Source of the DNA: a bacterium
GTDB lineage: Bacteria; Electryoneota; JAOADG01
NCBI GenBank assembly: GCA_963681965.1
Contig: OY820579.1
Coordinates: forward strand, 3,840,001 to 3,904,000
Reading direction: 5' to 3'
Length of the DNA stretch: 64,000 bases
This document shows, in pieces, positions 1,096-52,380 of the stretch. The notes under the pieces are model-generated. The model worked only from the letters and a program-made list of their open reading frames with translations, did no database searches and was not told the origin of the DNA. Both the position numbers and the translations under genes were made by a program. How positions within the stretch are numbered: the stretch's first letter is position 1; each line of letters begins with the position of its first letter.

Positions 1096-1390
1096 GTAGG
1101 GGAGGGCTCGTGAGCCCTCCCGCATATTTTTTGGTAGGGGCGGTTCGCGAACCGCCCGTATCGCCTGAAGGTTGCACAAATTTAAATTATATGCACGGGA
1201 TATAACAGCATTATTTTAATTGTGAATCCGATTACGATCGTTTATCTAGATCAGACACGGGCGGTTCGCGAACCGCCCCTACCAAAAGATAGATTGCCAC
1301 GTCCGAAGCTCGCGTCGTCCTCGCAACGACATATCAGGATACAGGAATCAAGATACAAGATATGGTCAGAACAAGTTCTGACCTACGGAT
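1096..1390. repeat. REP-like palindrome cluster, including an inverted pair of GTAGGGGCGGTTCGCGAACCGCCC
   Basis: GTAG-tagged hairpins at ~1096, ~1135 and (inverted) ~1259-1281; GATTGCC...CCTCGCAACGACA at ~1293-1332; GGTCAGAACAAGTTCTGACCTAC at ~1364. Confidence 0.85.
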
Positions 1391-29687: not shown

Positions 29688-29947
29688 CCATTCTAAACAC
29701 TTGTAGATCTTCTCAAGATCCTTAAGGGAATTCTCTAGTATTACCTTGTTTATTAATATGATTTTATCGGTTCTACTTCTTTGAGACCGCTCCACTTGCC
29801 CGCTTGCAAAAAATTTCGCAAATTTAGGGTTAGTTGAAATAAGACGGTTCACGAATGGCCGGACAGACCGTGGATCCATTCCCGTTATTTTCATTACCCG
29901 ACGCAGCTTGTATCAAGCATGCCAACGCAAGCAAGGAGATTCCAATC

Positions 29948-31438
29948 GTGGCAGAAAAATTCCAGAACTTTATCGATGGCGAATGGTGTGATGCGAAATC
30001 CGGCAACACCTTCGAAAACCGCAATCCCGCCGACTGGTCCGACTTGATCGGAACCTTCCCGAAGAGTAGCGCCGAAGAAGTCGACCGTGCCATCACCGCC
30101 GCCAAGCGCGCATTCAACGAATGGCGTCTGATGCCGGCACCGGCACGCGGCAATATTCTGAAAAAAGTCGGCGACCTCATGACCGAACGGAAAGAGTTCC
30201 TCGCCCGCGAAATGACCCGCGAAATGGGTAAAGTGTTGAAGGAAACCCGCGGCGACGTGCAGGAAGGGATCGATACCGCCTACTATGCCGCCAGCGAAAC
30301 CCGCCGTCTGTTCGGTCTCAATGCCCCCTCCGAATTGCCGAACAAATACAATCTGTCGATGCGACAGCCGCTTGGCGTCGTCGGTGTCATCACCCCCTGG
30401 AATTTCCCGATGGCAATTCCGACCTGGAAAATTTTCCCGGCATTGGCATGCGGTAACACCGTCGTGTTCAAGCCCGCATCCGATACGCCGCGCACTGCGA
30501 CTGAACTAGTGAAGATTCTCGCCGAAGCCGGTGTGCCGAAAGGCGTGATCAATATCGTCCACGGCGGCGGTTCAGTAGTCGGTAATGCGATCGTGAACGA
30601 TCCGCGCGTCGCCGCAATCACCTTTACCGGTGGCAGCGATGTCGGCAAGAGCATCAACGAGAAAGCCGGCAAGACGCTCAAGCGCGTATCGCTCGAGCTC
30701 GGCGGCAAGAACGCCGTGATCGTGATGAATGACGCCGATCTCGACCTCGCACTCGAAGCCGTGCTGTGGGGTGCGTTCGGTACGACCGGACAGCGTTGCA
30801 CCGCGACCTCGCGGGTGATCATTCAGTCGGGCGTGCACGACAAATTCCTCAAGATGGTGGTCGATGCGGCGAACAAACTGAAGCTCGGCAATGGTCTCGA
30901 CGAGAGCAATCAGGTCGGTCCGTGTGTCAGCGAAGCGCAGCGCGAATCGGTTCATGCCTATACCTTGATCGGTTTGAACGAAGATAAGGCGAAGCTCGAA
31001 TGCGGCGGCGAAGCGGCGCTCGGCGGCGATTTGGACAAGGGTTGGTTCTACAAACCGACGATTTTCTCCGGCATCAAACCGGGTATGCGACTCGAGCAGG
31101 AAGAAGTGTTCGGACCGGTATTGTCCGTGATCAAATCGGAAACATTGGAAGAGTCGATCAAGATTCTGAATGACACCGTGTACGGTCTGTCCAGCTCGAT
31201 TTTCACGCGCGACGTGAATGCGGCGATGACGGCGATCCGCGATATCGAAGCGGGGATTGTGTACATCAACGGCGCTACGATCGGTGCCGAAGCGCACATG
31301 CCGTTCGGCGGCGTGAAGGAAACCGGCAATGGTCACCGTGAAGGTGGCTGGACGGTATACGACTTCTTCTCCGAGTGGAAGACCGTGTATATCGATTTCT
31401 CCGGCAAACTGCAGAAGGCGCAGATCGATAACAACTAG
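29948..31438 (+). CDS. NAD(P)-dependent aldehyde dehydrogenase family protein (496 aa, GTG start)
   Basis: ITPWNFP, KPAS, FTGG, LELGGKN (catalytic Glu), GQRCTA (catalytic Cys), EEVFGP, PFGG.K.TG; AAGGAG RBS. Confidence 0.95.
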   Translation: MAEKFQNFIDGEWCDAKSGNTFENRNPADWSDLIGTFPKSSAEEVDRAITAAKRAFNEWRLMPAPARGNILKKVGDLMTERKEFLAREMTREMGKVLKETRGDVQEGIDTAYYAASETRRLFGLNAPSELPNKYNLSMRQPLGVVGVITPWNFPMAIPTWKIFPALACGNTVVFKPASDTPRTATELVKILAEAGVPKGVINIVHGGGSVVGNAIVNDPRVAAITFTGGSDVGKSINEKAGKTLKRVSLELGGKNAVIVMNDADLDLALEAVLWGAFGTTGQRCTATSRVIIQSGVHDKFLKMVVDAANKLKLGNGLDESNQVGPCVSEAQRESVHAYTLIGLNEDKAKLECGGEAALGGDLDKGWFYKPTIFSGIKPGMRLEQEEVFGPVLSVIKSETLEESIKILNDTVYGLSSSIFTRDVNAAMTAIRDIEAGIVYINGATIGAEAHMPFGGVKETGNGHREGGWTVYDFFSEWKTVYIDFSGKLQKAQIDNN

Positions 31439-31477
31439 GTGGTAGGTTGTAGGTCGTAGGTTTTAGGTGGTAAAATG

Positions 31478-31510
31478 ACCCCCCGCTTCGGATAGAGGCG
31501 GGGGGTTTTT
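31478..31510 (+). terminator. Rho-independent terminator
   Basis: ACCCCCCGCTTC...GAGGCGGGGGGTTTTT. Confidence 0.8.
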
Positions 31511-32422
31511 GATTTATTTTTGTTTCGATATTCCGACTCTGAATTGTATCGCGACGACAGATCTAGAAACGGGATAGTTATATACTCGCAAAGCTACACC
31601 AATTTGTCGTTGCGAGGAACGAAGGGCGTCCGCCGGCTGGCGGATGCGACCGAAGTGACGAAGCAATCTATTTTTTCATAAAACGACAAATCAAGATAAA
31701 AAAGATACCAGAAGATTACCTTCGGTGAGCCCTTAGGGGTTGCTTCGTCTCTTCGCTACGGAAGTGCTGCGCACGTTCCTACGCTGCGTTCCTCGCAACG
31801 ATAGAACAGGATACAGGATTTTAAAAAAAAAGATACCCGAAGATTGCTTCGTCATTCCACTTCGTAAATGCTCCGCATGTTACTTCGTTCCATTCCTCGC
31901 AACGACAGATCAGGATACAAGATATAAAAAGATACACAAGATTACCTTCGGTGAGCCCTTCGGGGTTGCTTCGTCTCTTCGCTACGGAAGTGCTGCGCAC
32001 GTTCCTACGCTGCGTTCCTCGCAACGACAGAACAGGATACAGGATTTTAAAAAAAAAGATACCCGAAGATTGCTTCGTCATTCCACTTCGTAAATGCTTC
32101 GCATATTACTTCGTTCCATTCCTCGCAACGACAAATCAAGATAAATGATAAAAAAAAGAACGGGCGCCCGCGGGGAGACGCCCCTACTGGCGTATAGTTT
32201 TCGCAACGACAAATCACGATATCAGACGAACATGAAAGAGAAAACCGAGCGGGAGGTCCCAGAGGGCCTCCCCTACTAAAGAATACCGAACGGGAGGGCG
32301 TGGGAGCCCTCCCCTACTTTGATAATGATGGATGCATGACTTGCCGCGGTAAAAAAAATCGACTACTGCGATTGTGTCTAAGTATAGCGGAACTCAAGAG
32401 ATGGGTCATCCGTTACAGAGCT

Positions 32423-32459
32423 ATCGACTGCGCGGGTTGGCGAAGATCGCACGCCAGTT
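32423..32459 (+). ncRNA. Candidate cis-regulatory RNA (pseudoknot; possibly sul1-motif-like) in the zf-TFIIB leader; second copy at 34255-34291
   Basis: ATCGACTGCGCGGGTTGGCGAAGATCGCACGCCAGTT: TGGCG/CGCCA stem, and loop CGCA can pair with upstream TGCG. Family name is from recollection only. Confidence 0.35.
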
Positions 32460-32479
32460 GGTTTTGATGGAGCTGAAAA

Positions 32480-32788
32480 ATGGATTGTCCACGCTGTACC
32501 AATGTCAACCTGGTCGTATCGGATCGCGCCGGAATCGAAATCGACTATTGCCCCACCTGCCGCGGAATCTGGCTGGATCGCGGCGAATTGGATAAAATTA
32601 TCGAACGGTCTCAGAGTTATGCCGCCATGGCACCGACCGCGGTAAATCATCCGCCTTCGCGCGAAGACTACCGCTACGAGGAACACGGTCACGATAAGCA
32701 TCGCGATCACGATTCACACGGATATTCCGGTCACGATTCGTACAAACACGGTCGTCGCAAATCGTGGCTGCAGGAACTGTTCGACTAA
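32480..32788 (+). CDS. zf-TFIIB zinc-ribbon protein with His-rich tail, copy 1
   Basis: CPRC...GIEIDYCPTCRGIWLDRGELDKII...RRKSWLQELFD; GGAG RBS. Confidence 0.9.
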   Translation: MDCPRCTNVNLVVSDRAGIEIDYCPTCRGIWLDRGELDKIIERSQSYAAMAPTAVNHPPSREDYRYEEHGHDKHRDHDSHGYSGHDSYKHGRRKSWLQELFD

Positions 32789-32817
32789 CCGATCCAATCG
32801 CTGTGGAAATTGAAATG

Positions 32818-32843
32818 AGGTGGATGAAAATCCACCTTTTTTT
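32818..32843 (+). terminator. Rho-independent terminator (duplicate at 34650-34675)
   Basis: AGGTGGAT-GAAA-ATCCACCTTTTTTT. Confidence 0.85.
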
Positions 32844-33429
32844 CGTATGGGCGTATGGCATACGCCCTTTTCCGATCAAGATGCTCATATCAAAAAAAGT
32901 AGGTTGCCACACTTCGCCAGCCTTTGGTTGTCTTCGTTCGCAACGACAGATCAGGATACAGGAATTAAGAGATACCCGAAGATTACCTTCAGTGAGCCCT
33001 TCGGGGTTGCTTCGTCTCTTCGCTACGGAAGTGCTGCGCACGTTCCTACGCTGCGTTCCTCGCAACGACAGAACAGGATACAGGATTTAAAAAAAAAAGA
33101 TACCCGAAGATTGCTTCGTTATTCCACTTCGTAAATGCTTCGCATGTTACTTCGTTCCATTCCTCGCAACGACAAATCAAGATAAATGATAAAAAAAAGA
33201 ACGGGCGCCCGCAGGGAGGCGCCCCTACTGTTGCAAAGTTGGCGCAACGACAAATCAGGATACAAGACACCGGATTTAAAGCATTAACCACGGAGAGCAT
33301 CTACGAAGGAACAATAAGACGCAAAGTGGCACCAACTTGTCGTTGCGAGGAATGAAGCGAAGGATCGTCAGCCACAGGATGACAGCCGTAGCGAAGAGAC
33401 GAAGCAATCTTCAGGTAATCTTTATTATT

Positions 33430-33459
33430 ATTGCATACAGAACCACTATGCAATATAAT
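33430..33459 (+). promoter_or_regulatory. sigma70 promoter of the GIY-YIG gene with overlapping inverted repeat; probably a leaderless transcript
   Basis: TTGCAT-17 bp-TATAAT ending 6 nt before ATG 33466; ATTGCATA-N9-TATGCAAT spans the spacer. Confidence 0.7.
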
Positions 33460-33465
33460 AAAATC

Positions 33466-33756
33466 ATGAAAACGTATTATGTCTACTTCATCACCAATCA
33501 TACGAACACAGTCCTCTATGTCGGTGTGACCAGCAACCTCGCACGTCGCTTGCAGGAGCATCGATTAGGCGTTGCAATGGGGTTTTCAAAGCGGTACCGA
33601 TTGACAAAGTTGGTCTATGTCGAGCAGACGACTGATCCGTCAGCGGCAATTGCGCGCGAGAAAACGATTAAAGGATACTCCCGGGCGCGGAAAGACGAAT
33701 TGGTGAATGCACAGAATCCAGAATGGAAAGATATCTCGGATCAGATTCCACTGTAG
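33466..33756 (+). CDS. Small GIY-YIG nuclease family protein (UPF0213-like), 96 aa
   Basis: YYVYFITN...VLYVGVTSNL.RR..EH....GFSKRY..TKLVY.E......AIAREK.IK...R..K..L....NPEW.D. Confidence 0.9.
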   Translation: MKTYYVYFITNHTNTVLYVGVTSNLARRLQEHRLGVAMGFSKRYRLTKLVYVEQTTDPSAAIAREKTIKGYSRARKDELVNAQNPEWKDISDQIPL

Positions 33757-34311
33757 AAAAACGATACCCGAAGATTACCTTCGGTGAGCCCTTCGGGGTT
33801 GCTTCGTCTCTTCGCTACGGAAGTGCTGCGCACGTTCCTACGCTGCGTTCCTCGCAACGACAGATCAGGATACAGGATAAAAAAAAAAGGATACCCGAAG
33901 ATTGCTTCGTCATTCCACTTCGTAAATGCTTCGCATGTTACTTCGTTCCATTCCTCGCAACGACAAATCAAGATAAATGATAAAAAAAAGAACGGGCGCC
34001 CGCAGGGAGGCGCCCCTACTGTTGCAAAGTTTTCGCAACGACAAATCACGATATCAGACGAACATGAAAGAGAAAACCGAGCGGGAGGTCCCAGAGGACC
34101 TCCCCTACTAAAGAATACCGAACGGGAGGGCGTGGGAGCCCTCCCCTACTTTGATAATGATGGATGCATGACTTGCCGCGGTAAAAAAAATCGACTACTG
34201 CGATTGTGTCTAAGTATAGCGGAACTCAAGAGATGGGTCATCCGTTACAAATCTATCGACTGCGCGGGTTGGCGAAGATCGCACGCCAGTTGGTTTTGAT
34301 GGAGCTGAAAA

Positions 34312-34620
34312 ATGGATTGTCCACGCTGTACCAATGTCAACCTGGTCGTATCGGATCGCGCCGGAATCGAAATCGACTATTGCCCCACCTGCCGCGGAAT
34401 CTGGCTGGATCGCGGCGAATTGGATAAAATTATCGAACGGTCTCAGAGTTATGCCGCCATGGCACCGACCGCGGTAAATCATCCGCCTTCGCGCGAAGAC
34501 TACCGCTACGAGGAACACGGTCACGATAAGCATCGCGATCACGATTCACACGGATATTCCGGTCACGATTCGTACAAACACGGTCGTCGCAAATCATGGC
34601 TGCAGGAGTTGTTCGACTAG
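34312..34620 (+). CDS. zf-TFIIB zinc-ribbon protein, copy 2 (identical protein)
   Basis: Same 102-aa translation as 32480-32788, offset by 1832 bp. Confidence 0.9.
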   Translation: MDCPRCTNVNLVVSDRAGIEIDYCPTCRGIWLDRGELDKIIERSQSYAAMAPTAVNHPPSREDYRYEEHGHDKHRDHDSHGYSGHDSYKHGRRKSWLQELFD

Positions 34621-35650
34621 TCGATCCAATCGCTGTGGAAATTGAAATGAGGTGGATGAAAATCCACCTTTTTTTCGTATGGGCAAATCAGGATACAGGA
34701 GATAAAAAGATACAATCATAATAGCTTCACAAATTTGTCGTTGCGAGGAACGAAGGGCGCAACCGTGTGCGCCCGAAGAGACGAAGCAATCTATTTTTTT
34801 CATGAAACGACAAATCAAGATAAAAAAAGATACCCGAAGATTGCTTCGTCTCTTCGCTGCGGAAGTGCTACGCACGTTCCTACGCTGCGTTCCTCGCAAC
34901 GACAGAACAGGATATAAGATATAAGATACCCGAAGATTACTTTCGGTGAGCCCTTAGGGGTTGCTTCGTCTCTTCGCTACGGAAGTGCTGCGCACGTTCC
35001 TACGCTGCGTTCCTCGCAACGACAAATCAAGATAAATGATAAAAAAAAGAACGGGCGCCCGCGGGGAGGCGCCCCTACTGGCGTATAGTTTTCGCAACGA
35101 CAAATCAGGATAAAAGATGATGGCGACTCTAAAGAGCCACCTCCAGTCGTAGGGGCGTATGGCATACGCCCTTTTCCGATCAAGATGCTCATATCAAAAA
35201 AAAGTAGGTTGCCACACTTCGCCAGCCTTTGGTTGTCTTCGTTCGCAACGACAGAACAGGATACAGGACATAAAAGATACCTGAAGATTACCTTCGGTGA
35301 GCCCTTAGGGGTTGCTTCGTCTCTTCGCTACGGAAGTGCTGCGCACGTTCCTACGCTGCGTTCCTCGCAACGACGAATCAAGATAAATGATAAAAAAAAG
35401 ATCGGGCGCCCGCAGAGAGGCGCCCCTACTTCCGAAATGTTTACCCAACGACAGATCAGGATATAGGAATAGGGCGGCACTAAAGTGCTACCTCCGATCG
35501 AACAAGCGAACAGCTCTTCGCGCTGAAAGACAATCGCAGGCTCGGAGGTCTGCGCCACCGAAAAGATGGGGATTGGGTGGTAGGTGTTGGGCAGTTGGAA
35601 AAAGATGAGTTGCGGCAAAATTTGGAATCGCCAGAGGGATTCACTTATCT

Positions 35651-35682
35651 TATATCTAACTGATATATATCACTCTGATAGA
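35651..35682. promoter_or_regulatory. Tandem palindromic operator candidates upstream of padR
   Basis: TATATC-N5-GATATA (35651-35667) overlapping TATATC-N5-GATAGA (35666-35682), next to the RBS. Confidence 0.6.
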
Positions 35683-35689
35683 GGTCAAG

Positions 35690-36262
35690 ATGAAACGCGA
35701 GAATATGACCCGATTCGCAATCCTCGGTTTGATATCGAAACAACCGATGAGCGGTTTCGATATCAAGAAAGCCGTCGATCAAGGGATCGGCTATTTCTGG
35801 AACGAGAGCTACGGTCAACTCTACCCCATCCTCAAGACACTCGCCGCCGAAGGATTGGTCGAGATGGCGATCGAACAGACCAGCGGGAAACCGGATCGTC
35901 ACGTCTACTCGATCACTTCTACCGGCTTGCAAGAATTGCGCTCATGGCTGATGCGACCGGTGGAAGCGCAACGTGTTCGCAATACGCTGCTGCTGCGACT
36001 GTTCTTCGGCGACAATGTGCCGACCACTGTCAGTATCCAACAAATCGAAGGAGTGTGCAATTTCAGTCGCGGATTACTCGCACAATTCGAGCAGCTGGAA
36101 CCGATCTTCAAACAACGTCCCGCATTCGAATACATCACCCTGATGTTCGGAATGACCTACCACAAAACCATTGTGGAATGGGGCGAGCAGGCGATTCAAC
36201 TATTGCAGCAACAACCATCGACAAAGTCGAACAAGAAACAGCGATCAGGACGAAAATCATGA
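35690..36262 (+). CDS. PadR-family regulator with C-terminal virulence-activator-alpha-like domain
   Basis: AILGLI...PMSGFDI......YFWNES.GQLYP.LK.L..EG.....GKPDR.VYSIT..G...L..W......LLRLFF. Confidence 0.9.
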   Translation: MKRENMTRFAILGLISKQPMSGFDIKKAVDQGIGYFWNESYGQLYPILKTLAAEGLVEMAIEQTSGKPDRHVYSITSTGLQELRSWLMRPVEAQRVRNTLLLRLFFGDNVPTTVSIQQIEGVCNFSRGLLAQFEQLEPIFKQRPAFEYITLMFGMTYHKTIVEWGEQAIQLLQQQPSTKSNKKQRSGRKS

Positions 36263-41861: not shown

Positions 41862-42592
41862 GGTAAGGGCGCTCTTACGCGTCCGCCCGAACCCGATGAT
41901 AATACACAAATATTTACCTTTCGCAAAAAATATTTTTCCTGATTGCGAATAAAATCGATCTTCAACAGACACGGGCGGACGCGGAGGAACGCCCCTACCA
42001 AAAAAAGGAGTCGGAATGAATTCCGACTTACGGAAAAGAAGTGAGTCGCATGCTCGGAGGATTGCTATTTTTTGTAGGGGCGTATCGCATACGCCCCAAG
42101 CGGCAGGCAGCGCCTGACGCATTGAATGGGAGATGAGGGTTAGGGGTTGGGAATTAGGAAATGATTAAAGCATAGATTGCCACGTCCTTCATGCGCCCTG
42201 CGGCGCATTCAGTCCTCGCAATGACAGAACAGGCTACAAGATAAAAAGATAGAAGAATTGGTCAGAACAAGTTCTGACCTACGGATAAGATAGGTATTGG
42301 GTGATAGGTGGTGGGGGTTGGGAAAAGATAAATAAAAGATACAAGAAGTGGTCAGAACAAGTTCTGACCTACGGATAAGATAGGTATTGGGTGATAGGTG
42401 GTGGGGGTTGGGAAAAGATAAATAAAAGATACAAGAAGTGGTCAGAACAAGTTCTGACCTACGGAAAAGAATATTCACGCAGGCTCGGAGGCCTGCGCCA
42501 CCAACAGAATAGGGATTGGGTGTTAGGTGGTGGGTAATAGGAAAAGATAATAAAAGATACGAGAAGAGGTCGGAATAAATTCCGACCTACCG
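41862..42592. repeat. Mosaic REP cluster with two ~91-bp tandem units
   Basis: GGTCAGAACAAGTTCTGACCTAC x3, G-rich heptamers, GTCGGAATAAATTCCGAC and others. Confidence 0.85.
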
Positions 42593-47319: not shown

Positions 47320-47985
47320 TGGTGGAGGTTAGGTGATGGGGATTGGGAAAAGACCGGTCGCGGGTGCAAGTGATGGGATCAGAAGGGTAGCGGCGGACTT
47401 TAGTCCGCGTTTTGTTTTCTTTGTAGCCGCAGGCTTTAGCCTGCGTTTTTTCTTGAATCTTGTATCATTCGCCCGATCATTTTTGGACACAAGAGGAGTC
47501 GGAATAAATTCCGACCTACGGAAAAGATAGGTTGTGGGGATTGGGAAAAGAAAAAACAGATAAACGATAGATTGCTTCGTCTCTTCGCTACGGAAGTGCT
47601 GCGCACGTTCCTTCGCTGCGTTCCTCGCAACGACAAAACAGGATACAGAATGCGGGCGGGCACGGGGACCCGCCCCTACTATAGGATACAAGATACAGAA
47701 TACAAGATAAAAAAGAGACAAGAAGTGGTCAGAACAAGTTCTGACCTACGGAAAAGATGGGTGGTGGGGGATAGGGGTTGGGGATTGGGAAAAGAAAAAA
47801 CAGATAAACGATAGATTGCTTCGTCTCTTCGCTACGGAAGTGCTGCGCACGTTCCTTCGCTGCGTTCCTCGCAACGACAAAACAGGATACAGAATGCGAA
47901 CGGGCGCGGGGACCCGCCCCTACTATAGGATACAAGATAAAAAAAGATAAAAAAACGGGCGGACATTGGAGCCCGCCCGTAGTAT
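47320..47985. repeat. Mosaic REP cluster
   Basis: GTAG hairpins plus two GATTGCTTCGTC...CCTCGCAACGACA copies (~47570, ~47814). Confidence 0.85.
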
Positions 47986-51699: not shown

Positions 51700-52380
51700 A
51701 GATAGATTGCCACACCCCCTGCGGGGCGGGTTCGCAATGACAGAAAAATAGGTTTCAATGTGGCGGGGCTAAAGCCCCACCTCCAACAAAGGGCAAACGC
51801 CCAGATTGTTGTTATGGTAGGGGCGGTTCGTGAACCGCCCGTGTCCATTCAGGATGCACAAACACCAGCGCGATTGCCACAGCCCATGCGGGTTCGCAAT
51901 GACAGAAAAAAAGAAAAAAGAGCGGGCGGACACGGGGGTCCGCCCCTACTGAATACAGGACACAAGATGAGTCGGAATAAATTCCGACCTACCGAAAAAA
52001 AGTGAATCGCAGGCTCGGAGGCTTGCGCAACCAAGACAGAATCAAGATCACAAGATGAGTCGGAATAAATTCCGACATACCGAAAAAAGTAATCGCAGGC
52101 TCGGAGGCCTGCGCCACCAGGACAGAATCAAGATCACAAGATGAGTCGGAATGAATTCCGACATACCGAAAAAAGTAATCGCAGGCTCGGAGGCCTGCGC
52201 CACCAGGACAGAATCAAGATCACAAGATGAGTCGGAATGAATTCCGACATACCGAAAAAAGTAATCGCAGGCTCGGAGGCCTGCGCCACCAAGACAGAAT
52301 CAAGATCACAAGATGAGTCGGAATAAATTCCGACCTACCGAAAAAAAAGTGAATCGCAAGCTCGGAGGCATGTGCTACAA
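51700..52380. repeat. REP cluster with five ~86-88-bp tandem two-hairpin units (BIME-like)
   Basis: CAAGATGAGTCGGAAT(A/G)AATTCCGAC...CGCAGGCTCGGAGGCCTGCG units starting at ~51963, 52051, 52137, 52223, 52309. Confidence 0.9.

Follow-up and report, generated by a model that had tools for sequence, protein, structure and literature searches.

An Ssn-like GIY-YIG nuclease gene bracketed by TGTC-tagged hairpin repeats of a TTGC class in a bacterium of the Electryoneota

REP/REPIN systems with RAYT genes (REPtrons) consist of an HUH Y1 (IS200/IS605-like) transposase gene flanked by inverted copies of genome-filling hairpin repeats, the repetitive extragenic palindromic sequences (REPs). In this work we analysed a 64,000-nucleotide (nt) window, i.e. 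the whole stretch C1:3840001-3904000, of the genome of a bacterium of the Electryoneota (assembly GCA_963681965.1; a single contig, OY820579.1, here C1 of G000, of 4,244,867 bp and 47% G+C), in which a gene for a 96-amino-acid (aa) GIY-YIG nuclease lies between two inverted arms of a family of TGTC-tagged hairpin repeats. This arm-gene-arm cassette resembles the REP/RAYT arrangement in its small nuclease-type gene between inverted genome-filling hairpins and in the presence of gene-less inverted doublets, and it differs in its enzyme, which is of the GIY-YIG and not the HUH Y1 type, and in its arms, which are tagged TGTC and not GTAG.

The closest described counterpart is the Ssn family. Chenal et al. 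(2025, Nat Commun 16:2388; PMC11893778) described single-domain GIY-YIG proteins of ~94 aa (CDD cd10448) as Ssn site-specific nucleases, which cut single-stranded DNA only, on a single strand and directly 5' of an oriented hairpin motif, named NTS in Neisseria and SRM (Ssn-related motif) in general. According to the same paper, an SRM is found near 71% of Ssn homologs, on both sides for 42%, and the gene is present in 81% of the genomes with more than 200 SRMs; the published SRM motif was a search aid derived from 29 genomes and not a definition (PMC11893778). Its Discussion states that NTS-ssnA-NTS resembles an insertion sequence and likens it to IS200/IS605 and to REP/RAYT (PMC11893778). REPs tagged TGTC/CGTC had earlier been reported without a dedicated transposase (Di Nocera, De Gregorio and Rocco 2013, PMC3733652). 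A literature search pairing GIY-YIG with "repetitive extragenic palindromic" gave no match, and another, from 2024 on, for Ssn, GIY-YIG, single-stranded and hairpin returned only Chenal et al. (2025).

The locus analysed here shares with the Ssn/SRM systems a single-domain GIY-YIG protein of ~95 aa, the placement of the gene between inverted, oriented (C/T)GTC-tagged hairpins, multi-copy intergenic repeats, the co-occurrence of gene and repeats across genomes and the existence of many enzyme/motif pairs. It differs from them in that its repeats have an RTTGC/GCAAY stem, an interrupted interior and a length of up to 72 nt, and in that the published degenerate motif is not enriched in the source genome. 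Sequence comparison makes it very probable that the locus consists of an Ssn-family GIY-YIG nuclease and its cognate hairpin repeats (SRM) in the published repeat-gene-repeat layout. The element is a further example of the published pairing, and what is new is its TTGC repeat class, which lies outside the published search pattern. An earlier, sequence-only reading of this stretch had taken the nuclease to be the cognate enzyme of the repeats; the idea is sound but already in print, since the Ssn/SRM pairing was described by Chenal et al. (2025, PMC11893778).

The 96-aa protein matches the Pfam family GIY-YIG (PF01541, E=2.5e-15, residues 3-74), with no second domain above the cut-off, and is 46-56% identical to homologs spread over many phyla. 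An alignment of 12 homologs shows no variation at Y7, Y18, G20, R28, H32, E65 and N84, and such residues have catalytic roles in the GIY-YIG superfamily. The arms (Table 1) were said in the sequence-only reading to be reverse complements at their ends, and indeed 33338-33352 and 33848-33862 are exact reverse complements over 15 nt, as are 33386-33407 and 33799-33820 over 22 nt (100%), while 33338-33368 and 33832-33862 are 87% complementary over 31 nt. If up to two mismatches are allowed, 18 sites in the window match the arm 15-mer; 100 shuffles gave 0.27 on average and 2 at most. In their middle parts the arms are unlike, therefore they are two members of one family and not copies of one sequence. 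The right arm is preceded by an extension (33757-33796) common to the copies that we call unit A. As for the claim that the arms enclose only a promoter and the nuclease gene, the gene stands by its PF01541 match and the promoter was not confirmed, a consensus scan finding no sigma-70-like site on the + strand.

Table 1. Features of the nuclease cassette, its repeat family and the surrounding array (positions in the window)
Feature	Position	Strand	Details
Left arm, forward long-type TGTC-tagged hairpin repeat	33338..33409	+	T plus 71-nt core GTCGTTGCGAGGAA...GACGAAGCAATC
Gene for 96-aa single-domain GIY-YIG nuclease, Ssn-like	33466..33756	+	ATG 33466, TAG 33754-33756; Pfam PF01541
Possible -10 box TATAAT	33454..33459	+	by eye, perfect TATAAT, 6 nt 5' of ATG; putative
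Right arm, long-type repeat, reverse	33797..33862	-	65-nt core plus T tag
Second reverse long-type repeat (unit B)	33900..33965	-	just outside right arm
Gene-less inverted doublet	31605..31803	.	forward repeat 31605-31668, 45-nt spacer plus unit A extension, reverse repeat ending 31803
Gene-less inverted doublet	34736..34904	.	forward repeat 34736-34791, 47-nt spacer, reverse repeat 34839-34904
Solo repeat, 39 nt	1292..1330	-	family catalogue
Solo repeat, 51 nt	42175..42225	-	basal ATTGC/GCAAT stem plus distal hairpin, z -2.2
Solo long-type repeat, 65 nt	47570..47634	-	family catalogue
Solo long-type repeat	47814..47878	-	identical to the 47570 copy
Solo short-type repeat, 37 nt	51705..51741	-	family catalogue
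Solo short-type repeat, 32 nt	51872..51903	-	family catalogue
Repeat-packed intergenic array	31440..35580	.	15 catalogued TGTC-tagged repeats, interleaved GTAG-headed REPs, nuclease cassette, 1,832-bp tandem duplication

Free-standing GIY-YIG homing endonuclease genes insert into their targets, which raises the possibility that the repeats are a target only and that the nuclease gene was inserted into a pre-existing repeat. Membership in the GIY-YIG superfamily and the constant location of the gene among repeats would fit such an origin, but we consider it quite improbable. Homing endonucleases of this type carry a joined DNA-binding domain and their genes lie in an intron or split the target, whereas the 96-aa protein has no such extension and is flanked by two complete inverted repeats and not by the halves of one split repeat. 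Moreover, with the group I intron endonuclease model TIGR01453 the protein reaches 19.7 bits, below the cut-off of 56.

The association between gene and repeats extends beyond the window. PF01541 has three matches in the genome, namely the window gene, a small paralog at C1:1431258-1431539 and a match in a 682-aa frame, which we take to be UvrC. The paralog product is 63% identical to the window protein, its sister on a quick tree (SH-aLRT 94), and the gene is bracketed in the same manner: 35 nt separate a forward short-type repeat from the ATG, and a reverse short-type repeat follows the stop codon at a distance of 12 nt. In a set of 41 genomes (40 of the same phylum and the source genome) a homolog was found in 34, many of them at contig ends, and 10 of the 11 fetched homolog loci of relatives showed the bracket by eye; the remaining one, L004, is arranged otherwise.

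A wider scan of one genome per species gave 595 relatives, of which 80 loci (46-56% identity) were kept, coming from Bacillota, Bacteroidota, Pseudomonadota, Chloroflexota, Cyanobacteriota, Planctomycetota, candidate phyla radiation groups and others. These were taken into a set of 91 loci, with 300 shifted windows as controls. An exact inverted repeat of at least 12 nt joins the 250 nt on either side of the gene at 48 of the 91 loci (3 of 300 shifted), and the tag with a matching basal stem occurs on both sides, in the bracket geometry, at 52 of the 91 loci, as compared with 1 of the 300 controls. The opposite geometry on both sides was seen at 20 of the 91 loci, and a tagged hairpin on at least one side at 78 (54 of 300 in the controls). 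Within the first 100 nt, the tag motif is found upstream 30 times in the sense and 9 times in the antisense orientation, and downstream 41 times in the antisense and 17 times in the sense orientation; farther than 500 nt from the gene it falls to ~1 per 8 kb per strand. The homologs thus have bracketing repeats more often than shifted windows do, in support of the cognate relation put forward in the sequence-only reading.

The numbers of repeats follow the gene as well. Among the 41 genomes, 22 of the 23 with at least five TTGC-class copies have the gene, and six of the seven genomes without it hold no copy at all, counts that are not to be read as a test, since related genomes are not independent. 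A search with a 12-sequence profile upheld the absence of the gene in five of the seven gene-less genomes. A gene that merely happened to lie in a spacer crowded with generic REP-like hairpins is hardly credible: a 4-kb repeat array in a hairpin-saturated genome speaks for it, but it is contradicted by the same bracket at the second paralog, by the both-sided hairpins at loci of many phyla, by the specific strand geometry of the tag motif and by the gene-less relatives free of the repeat class. These observations, together with the clustering of repeat classes described below, bear out the cognate pairing of nuclease and repeats.

Oriented from its tag, the repeat unit reads T-GTC-R-TTGCGA...GCAAYC and measures 28-72 nt. 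It was catalogued by searching for GTCRTTGCG followed by GC[AT]AYC within 130 nt; the 268 seed matches gave 155 candidates, of which those of at most 75 nt, starting with GTCRTTGCGA[AG] and folding at -2 kcal/mol or better, were kept (17 of the 155 were dropped). The TGTC-tagged family has 138 catalogued copies in the 4.24-Mb genome, and an independent pattern count gave 73+64 = 137 copies, against 0 for a reversed-pattern control. The six solo arms claimed in the window are all in this catalogue, all on the - strand. The most frequent lengths are 65 nt (33 copies), 37 nt (20), 40 nt (17), 34 nt (11), 71 nt (10) and 36 nt (10). A long subtype (GAGG...CGAAGCAAYC) accounts for 53 copies and a short subtype (GAA...GTGGCAAYC) for 52, with 24 mixed and 9 other copies. 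The common architecture comprises a 5-bp basal stem RTTGC/GCAAY, an interrupted CGAAG-rich interior and a variable distal hairpin. A leader of ~16 nt (roughly TCYTGTATCYTGATYT) precedes GTC and a trailer, TACTCTTT, follows the core. T occupies position -1 in 132 of the 138 copies, GTC itself being fixed by the search pattern. As single-stranded DNA, short copies form the basal ATTGC/GCAAT stem with a variable distal hairpin (z -1.2 and -2.2).

Some copies are arranged in ways of their own. Six long-type repeats follow one another head-to-tail at C1:2252401-2252970, one every 101 nt. Identical or near-identical 71-nt repeats occur at C1:25273, 206796, 1543819, 2086885 and 3754098, and at 3838618, just before the window; they have longer identical flanks on both sides and are therefore parts of a larger dispersed element. 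The distal hairpin of the left arm of the cassette is degenerate in the source genome. A 430-nt contig of run X4 that covers the cassette departs from it at 33374-33379 (A>G, C>T, an inserted T, A>C), and these four changes make the inner hairpin of the left arm perfect, resembling the copy at C1:2254932.

In the class found here, RTTGC/GCAAY replaces the ATTCC/GGAAT basal stem of the Neisseria NTS, so that both halves of the stem are altered. Matches to the NTS-like pattern GTCRTTCC...GGAAYC do not exceed chance in this genome (3) or in the two nearest relatives (2 and 7), while other genomes of the phylum hold up to hundreds. The TGTC/CGTC-tagged REPs of Di Nocera et al. (PMC3733652) are similar in their terminal TGTC tag, in a stem opening with A/T pairs and in their inverted dimers and clusters, but they are described with continuous 8-9-bp stems, 4-5-nt loops and a CCA tail, whereas the stem here is interrupted, the unit is of 28-72 nt and its trailer is TACTCTTT. 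The 10-mers of the class were absent from all of the searched supplementary files of Chenal et al. (2025), 12 out of 14, and a literature search with its 11-mers found, among the matches listed, unrelated primers or probes only.

One published genome illustrates the consequence. A homolog from Hymenobacter aerophilus DSM 13606 (locus L015) is 54% identical to the window protein and has 37-nt inverted arms of the TTGC class. Supplementary Data 4 of Chenal et al. (PMC11893778) lists this strain as holding a cd10448 homolog and gives it 15 SRMs against 32.4 in shuffles, i.e. 0.46-fold. This figure fits a published motif that misses the TTGC class, although we cannot be sure that L015 is the gene scored by those authors as the cd10448 homolog. 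Homologs with arms resembling the published NTS (L020, L085 and L090) are 46-51% identical to the window protein. Together with the invariant residues, these homologs provide good indirect evidence for placing the window protein in the Ssn family.

The class of the arms also follows the protein. All 14 loci labelled as TTGC class by script encode a K-x-G-S-R loop motif; TTCC, NTS-like arms mostly accompany W-x-R-x-W-K, and the CCY/TCT-GAG classes accompany G-W-x-R-x-K-K. On a quick tree of 93 rows and 93 columns, poorly resolved and with most forks open, 20 rows bear the TGC label, which for four of them was assigned by hand. The label requires 4 changes, as compared with 17.7 in shuffles (0 of 500 as low), and 16 of the TGC rows, from at least eight phyla, fall into a single group of 21. 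This clustering indicates co-inheritance of gene and arms and not a proven recognition code, because related sequences share labels. A simple specificity code, in which the short loop (K-x-G-S-R vs W-x-R-x-W-K) would read the class of the basal stem (ATTGC vs ATTCC), forms part of the proposal, discussed below, that the enzyme copies the repeats, and is with it regarded as tentative.

Several observations weigh against an Ssn nuclease with cognate hairpins. An NCBIfam scan of the 96-aa protein gave nothing above the cut-off, and its sole PDB match by sequence was 1zg2 (UPF0213), a weak one (E=0.009). No Ssn structure was found in the PDB by sequence. UPF0213/BH0048-type proteins, represented by 1zg2, are likewise small stand-alone GIY-YIG domains, and they are not known to us to be associated with repeats. 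The published degenerate SRM motif has 9 matches in the genome, all of them outside the repeat family, and five dinucleotide-preserving shuffles gave 8, 7, 11, 17 and 10. Folded as single strands, the long arms around the gene are not significantly more stable than shuffles (z -0.26 to -0.70) and the basal stem is absent from their minimum-energy folds; therefore we claim no stable whole-arm hairpin for the long type. The tagged strand is the lagging-strand template in 87 vs 51 copies (binomial p=0.003; by cluster 37:23, with 4 ties), a modest bias that could simply reflect gene orientation. The two paralogs of the source genome, at 63% identity, are old. Twelve gene-bearing genomes have fewer than five TTGC-class copies, several of them holding the NTS-like class instead. 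Finally, in the related genome G004 (100% complete, 210 contigs), with 22 TTGC-class and 44 TTCC-class repeats, neither protein nor 12-sequence profile searches detected an Ssn-like gene, so that either the repeats are orphans or the gene is unassembled.

Identification of the pairing does not by itself say what the nuclease does with the repeats. The sequence-only reading had the enzyme spread or maintain them, which is possible but doubtful, as the enzymes are described as cutting single-stranded DNA beside the motif and influencing transformation, and not as transposing DNA. The evidence closest to mobility comes from a relative and not from the source genome. G037 has 12 matches to the nuclease gene, some with stop codons, and nine further loci were fetched from it. 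The loci L097 and L098 are 80% identical over 375 nt, from the left-arm TGTCAT to the right-arm ATGAC, beyond which their DNA is unrelated, and L102 and L103 are 84% identical over 436 nt, the similarity ending directly after CGCAATGAC. Homology was thus bounded at the arm tags in both pairs examined, the cassette having unit-like boundaries there, and this is a hint of the behaviour expected of a mobile unit. No target-site duplication was seen in these pairs.

On this basis, and given the clustering of arm class with protein subfamily across phyla, Ssn-type nucleases might be the copying enzymes of TGTC/CGTC-tagged repeats, a proposal which, with the loop code as one of its parts, we put forward with considerable reservation. 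The cassette would be a minimal autonomous element ending at the tags, the doublets and solo repeats would be its non-autonomous derivatives, the doublets travelling as passengers, and a nick in single-stranded DNA at the tag would be followed by joining by the host. Mobilisation by the nuclease in this way is conceivable rather than likely. Besides the tag-bounded copies and the 12 gene matches, some with stop codons, of G037, it agrees with the many homologs at contig ends, with the co-occurrence of gene and repeats across genomes and with the prevalence of forward-then-reverse doublets (11) over the opposite geometry (4) among neighbouring copies at most 600 nt apart. The cassette and its array are also missing from the orthologous site in G001 and G003, where the 4-kb array is absent 3' of the orthologous aldehyde dehydrogenase gene, although the downstream synteny is lost there. 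On the other hand, most neighbouring copies (39) are in tandem and not inverted pairs, which agrees with amplification by recombination or slippage. Neither a target-site duplication nor an empty site was seen, and among the contigs of four runs (X1, X3, X4 and X5), which are broken by repeats, none skips or joins across the cassette, the joints listed being those between repeat units; these contigs speak neither for nor against an empty allele. G004 keeps 66 repeats without a detectable gene. GIY-YIG enzymes are hydrolases, hence copying could be completed only through host replication or repair, and to our knowledge they do not form the covalent rejoining intermediates of HUH transposases. 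Furthermore, the only biological role tested so far is in transformation (PMC11893778).

That role underlies another explanation of the pairing, namely that the nuclease serves the host by cutting motif-bearing single-stranded DNA (transforming, conjugative, or arising in replication or repair), while the arms regulate or mark the gene and the repeats spread by other means. We hold this, too, to be a possibility short of likely. In its favour, SsnA of N. meningitidis lowers transformation by reducing integration of NTS-bearing transforming DNA (PMC11893778). The repeats here are intergenic and mostly co-oriented with the lagging-strand template. In addition, the genome has Y1-transposase-like genes and many GTAG REPs, therefore other copying machinery exists in it. 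A service to the host leaves unexplained, however, why homology of dispersed copies ends exactly at the arm tags and why the arm class tracks the protein subfamily across at least eight phyla.

The nuclease may thus copy the repeats or serve the cell through single-stranded DNA, neither of which we would call likely, and it is possible that it does both. If it behaves like its homologs from Neisseria and Wolbachia that have been tested, the 96-aa protein would act on single-stranded DNA only. It is predicted to bind the strand reading 5'-TGTCRTTGCGA...GCAAYC-3' and to cut a few bases 5' of the TGTC tag, inside the conserved leader of most copies, a specificity inferred from the published enzymes. 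The cassette and the gene-less doublets might then multiply as a selfish unit, or the cell might have recruited them for action on single-stranded DNA, as happens when Neisseria is transformed.

The doublets themselves deserve a comment. The sequence-only reading described gene-less arm pairs at 31605-31803 and 34736-34904 with near-identical 45-47-bp spacers, and reading of the sequence supports this, as the inner spacers (45 and 47 nt) are nearly alike. Its further description of them as empty versions is not borne out. The inner hairpins of their left arms are unlike those of the filled element and only the last ~15 nt of the spacer match it, so the doublets are not demonstrable products of excision or deletion; we rejected such a derivation and regard them as gene-less inverted doublets with different left-arm inner hairpins. 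The forward arms that open a bracket or doublet (31605, 33338 and 34736) have a leader of their own, ...CAC(C)AAYTT before GTC, unlike the common leader of the remaining copies.

The array fills a 4-kb spacer that follows the aldehyde dehydrogenase gene (29855-31438) and extends to the next long gene, which runs from 35584. An Rfam scan of 31000-36000 with E up to 1 gave a long non-coding RNA match by chance and nothing else, therefore no known RNA family is present there. Within the spacer, the segments 31925-33756 and 33757-35590 form a tandem duplication (period 1,832 bp), whose Zn-ribbon genes (32480-32788 and 34312-34620) are identical copies encoding 102 aa with a His-rich tail (PF13453, E=9.6e-20). 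The nuclease cassette lies between the two Zn-ribbon duplicates, and its right arm doubles as the first unit of the second duplicate. After the first Zn-ribbon gene there is a 96-nt stretch (32853-32948) that is absent after the second (34684/34685). This indel between the duplicates comprises half a GTAG-type REP and a short-type TGTC repeat, and one of its ends falls at the tag of the TGTC repeat, adjoining the conserved leader. GTAG-headed REPs of several families fill the genome (in the window e.g. 32158-32190, 33199-33230 and 35058-35080), and PF01797 (Y1-transposase-like) has matches at C1:526789-527022 and C1:529738-529974, both away from the cassette. Two tagged-repeat systems therefore coexist and interleave in this genome.

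The TTGC class, with its ATTGC basal stem and interrupted interior, is present also in Cyanobacteriota, Chloroflexota, Bacteroidota and others, outside the published motif. As that motif misses the class, the published counts of Ssn-gene genomes without a motif are likely too high, H. aerophilus being an example. The tracking of loop motif by arm class offers a testable handle on how a protein of 96 aa reads its site, and the two paralogs of this genome, flanked by different subtypes (long and short), therefore constitute a natural pair for comparing specificity. With its sequence-motif-specific cutting of single-stranded DNA, the Ssn family may account for a large and long-orphaned class of bacterial repeats.

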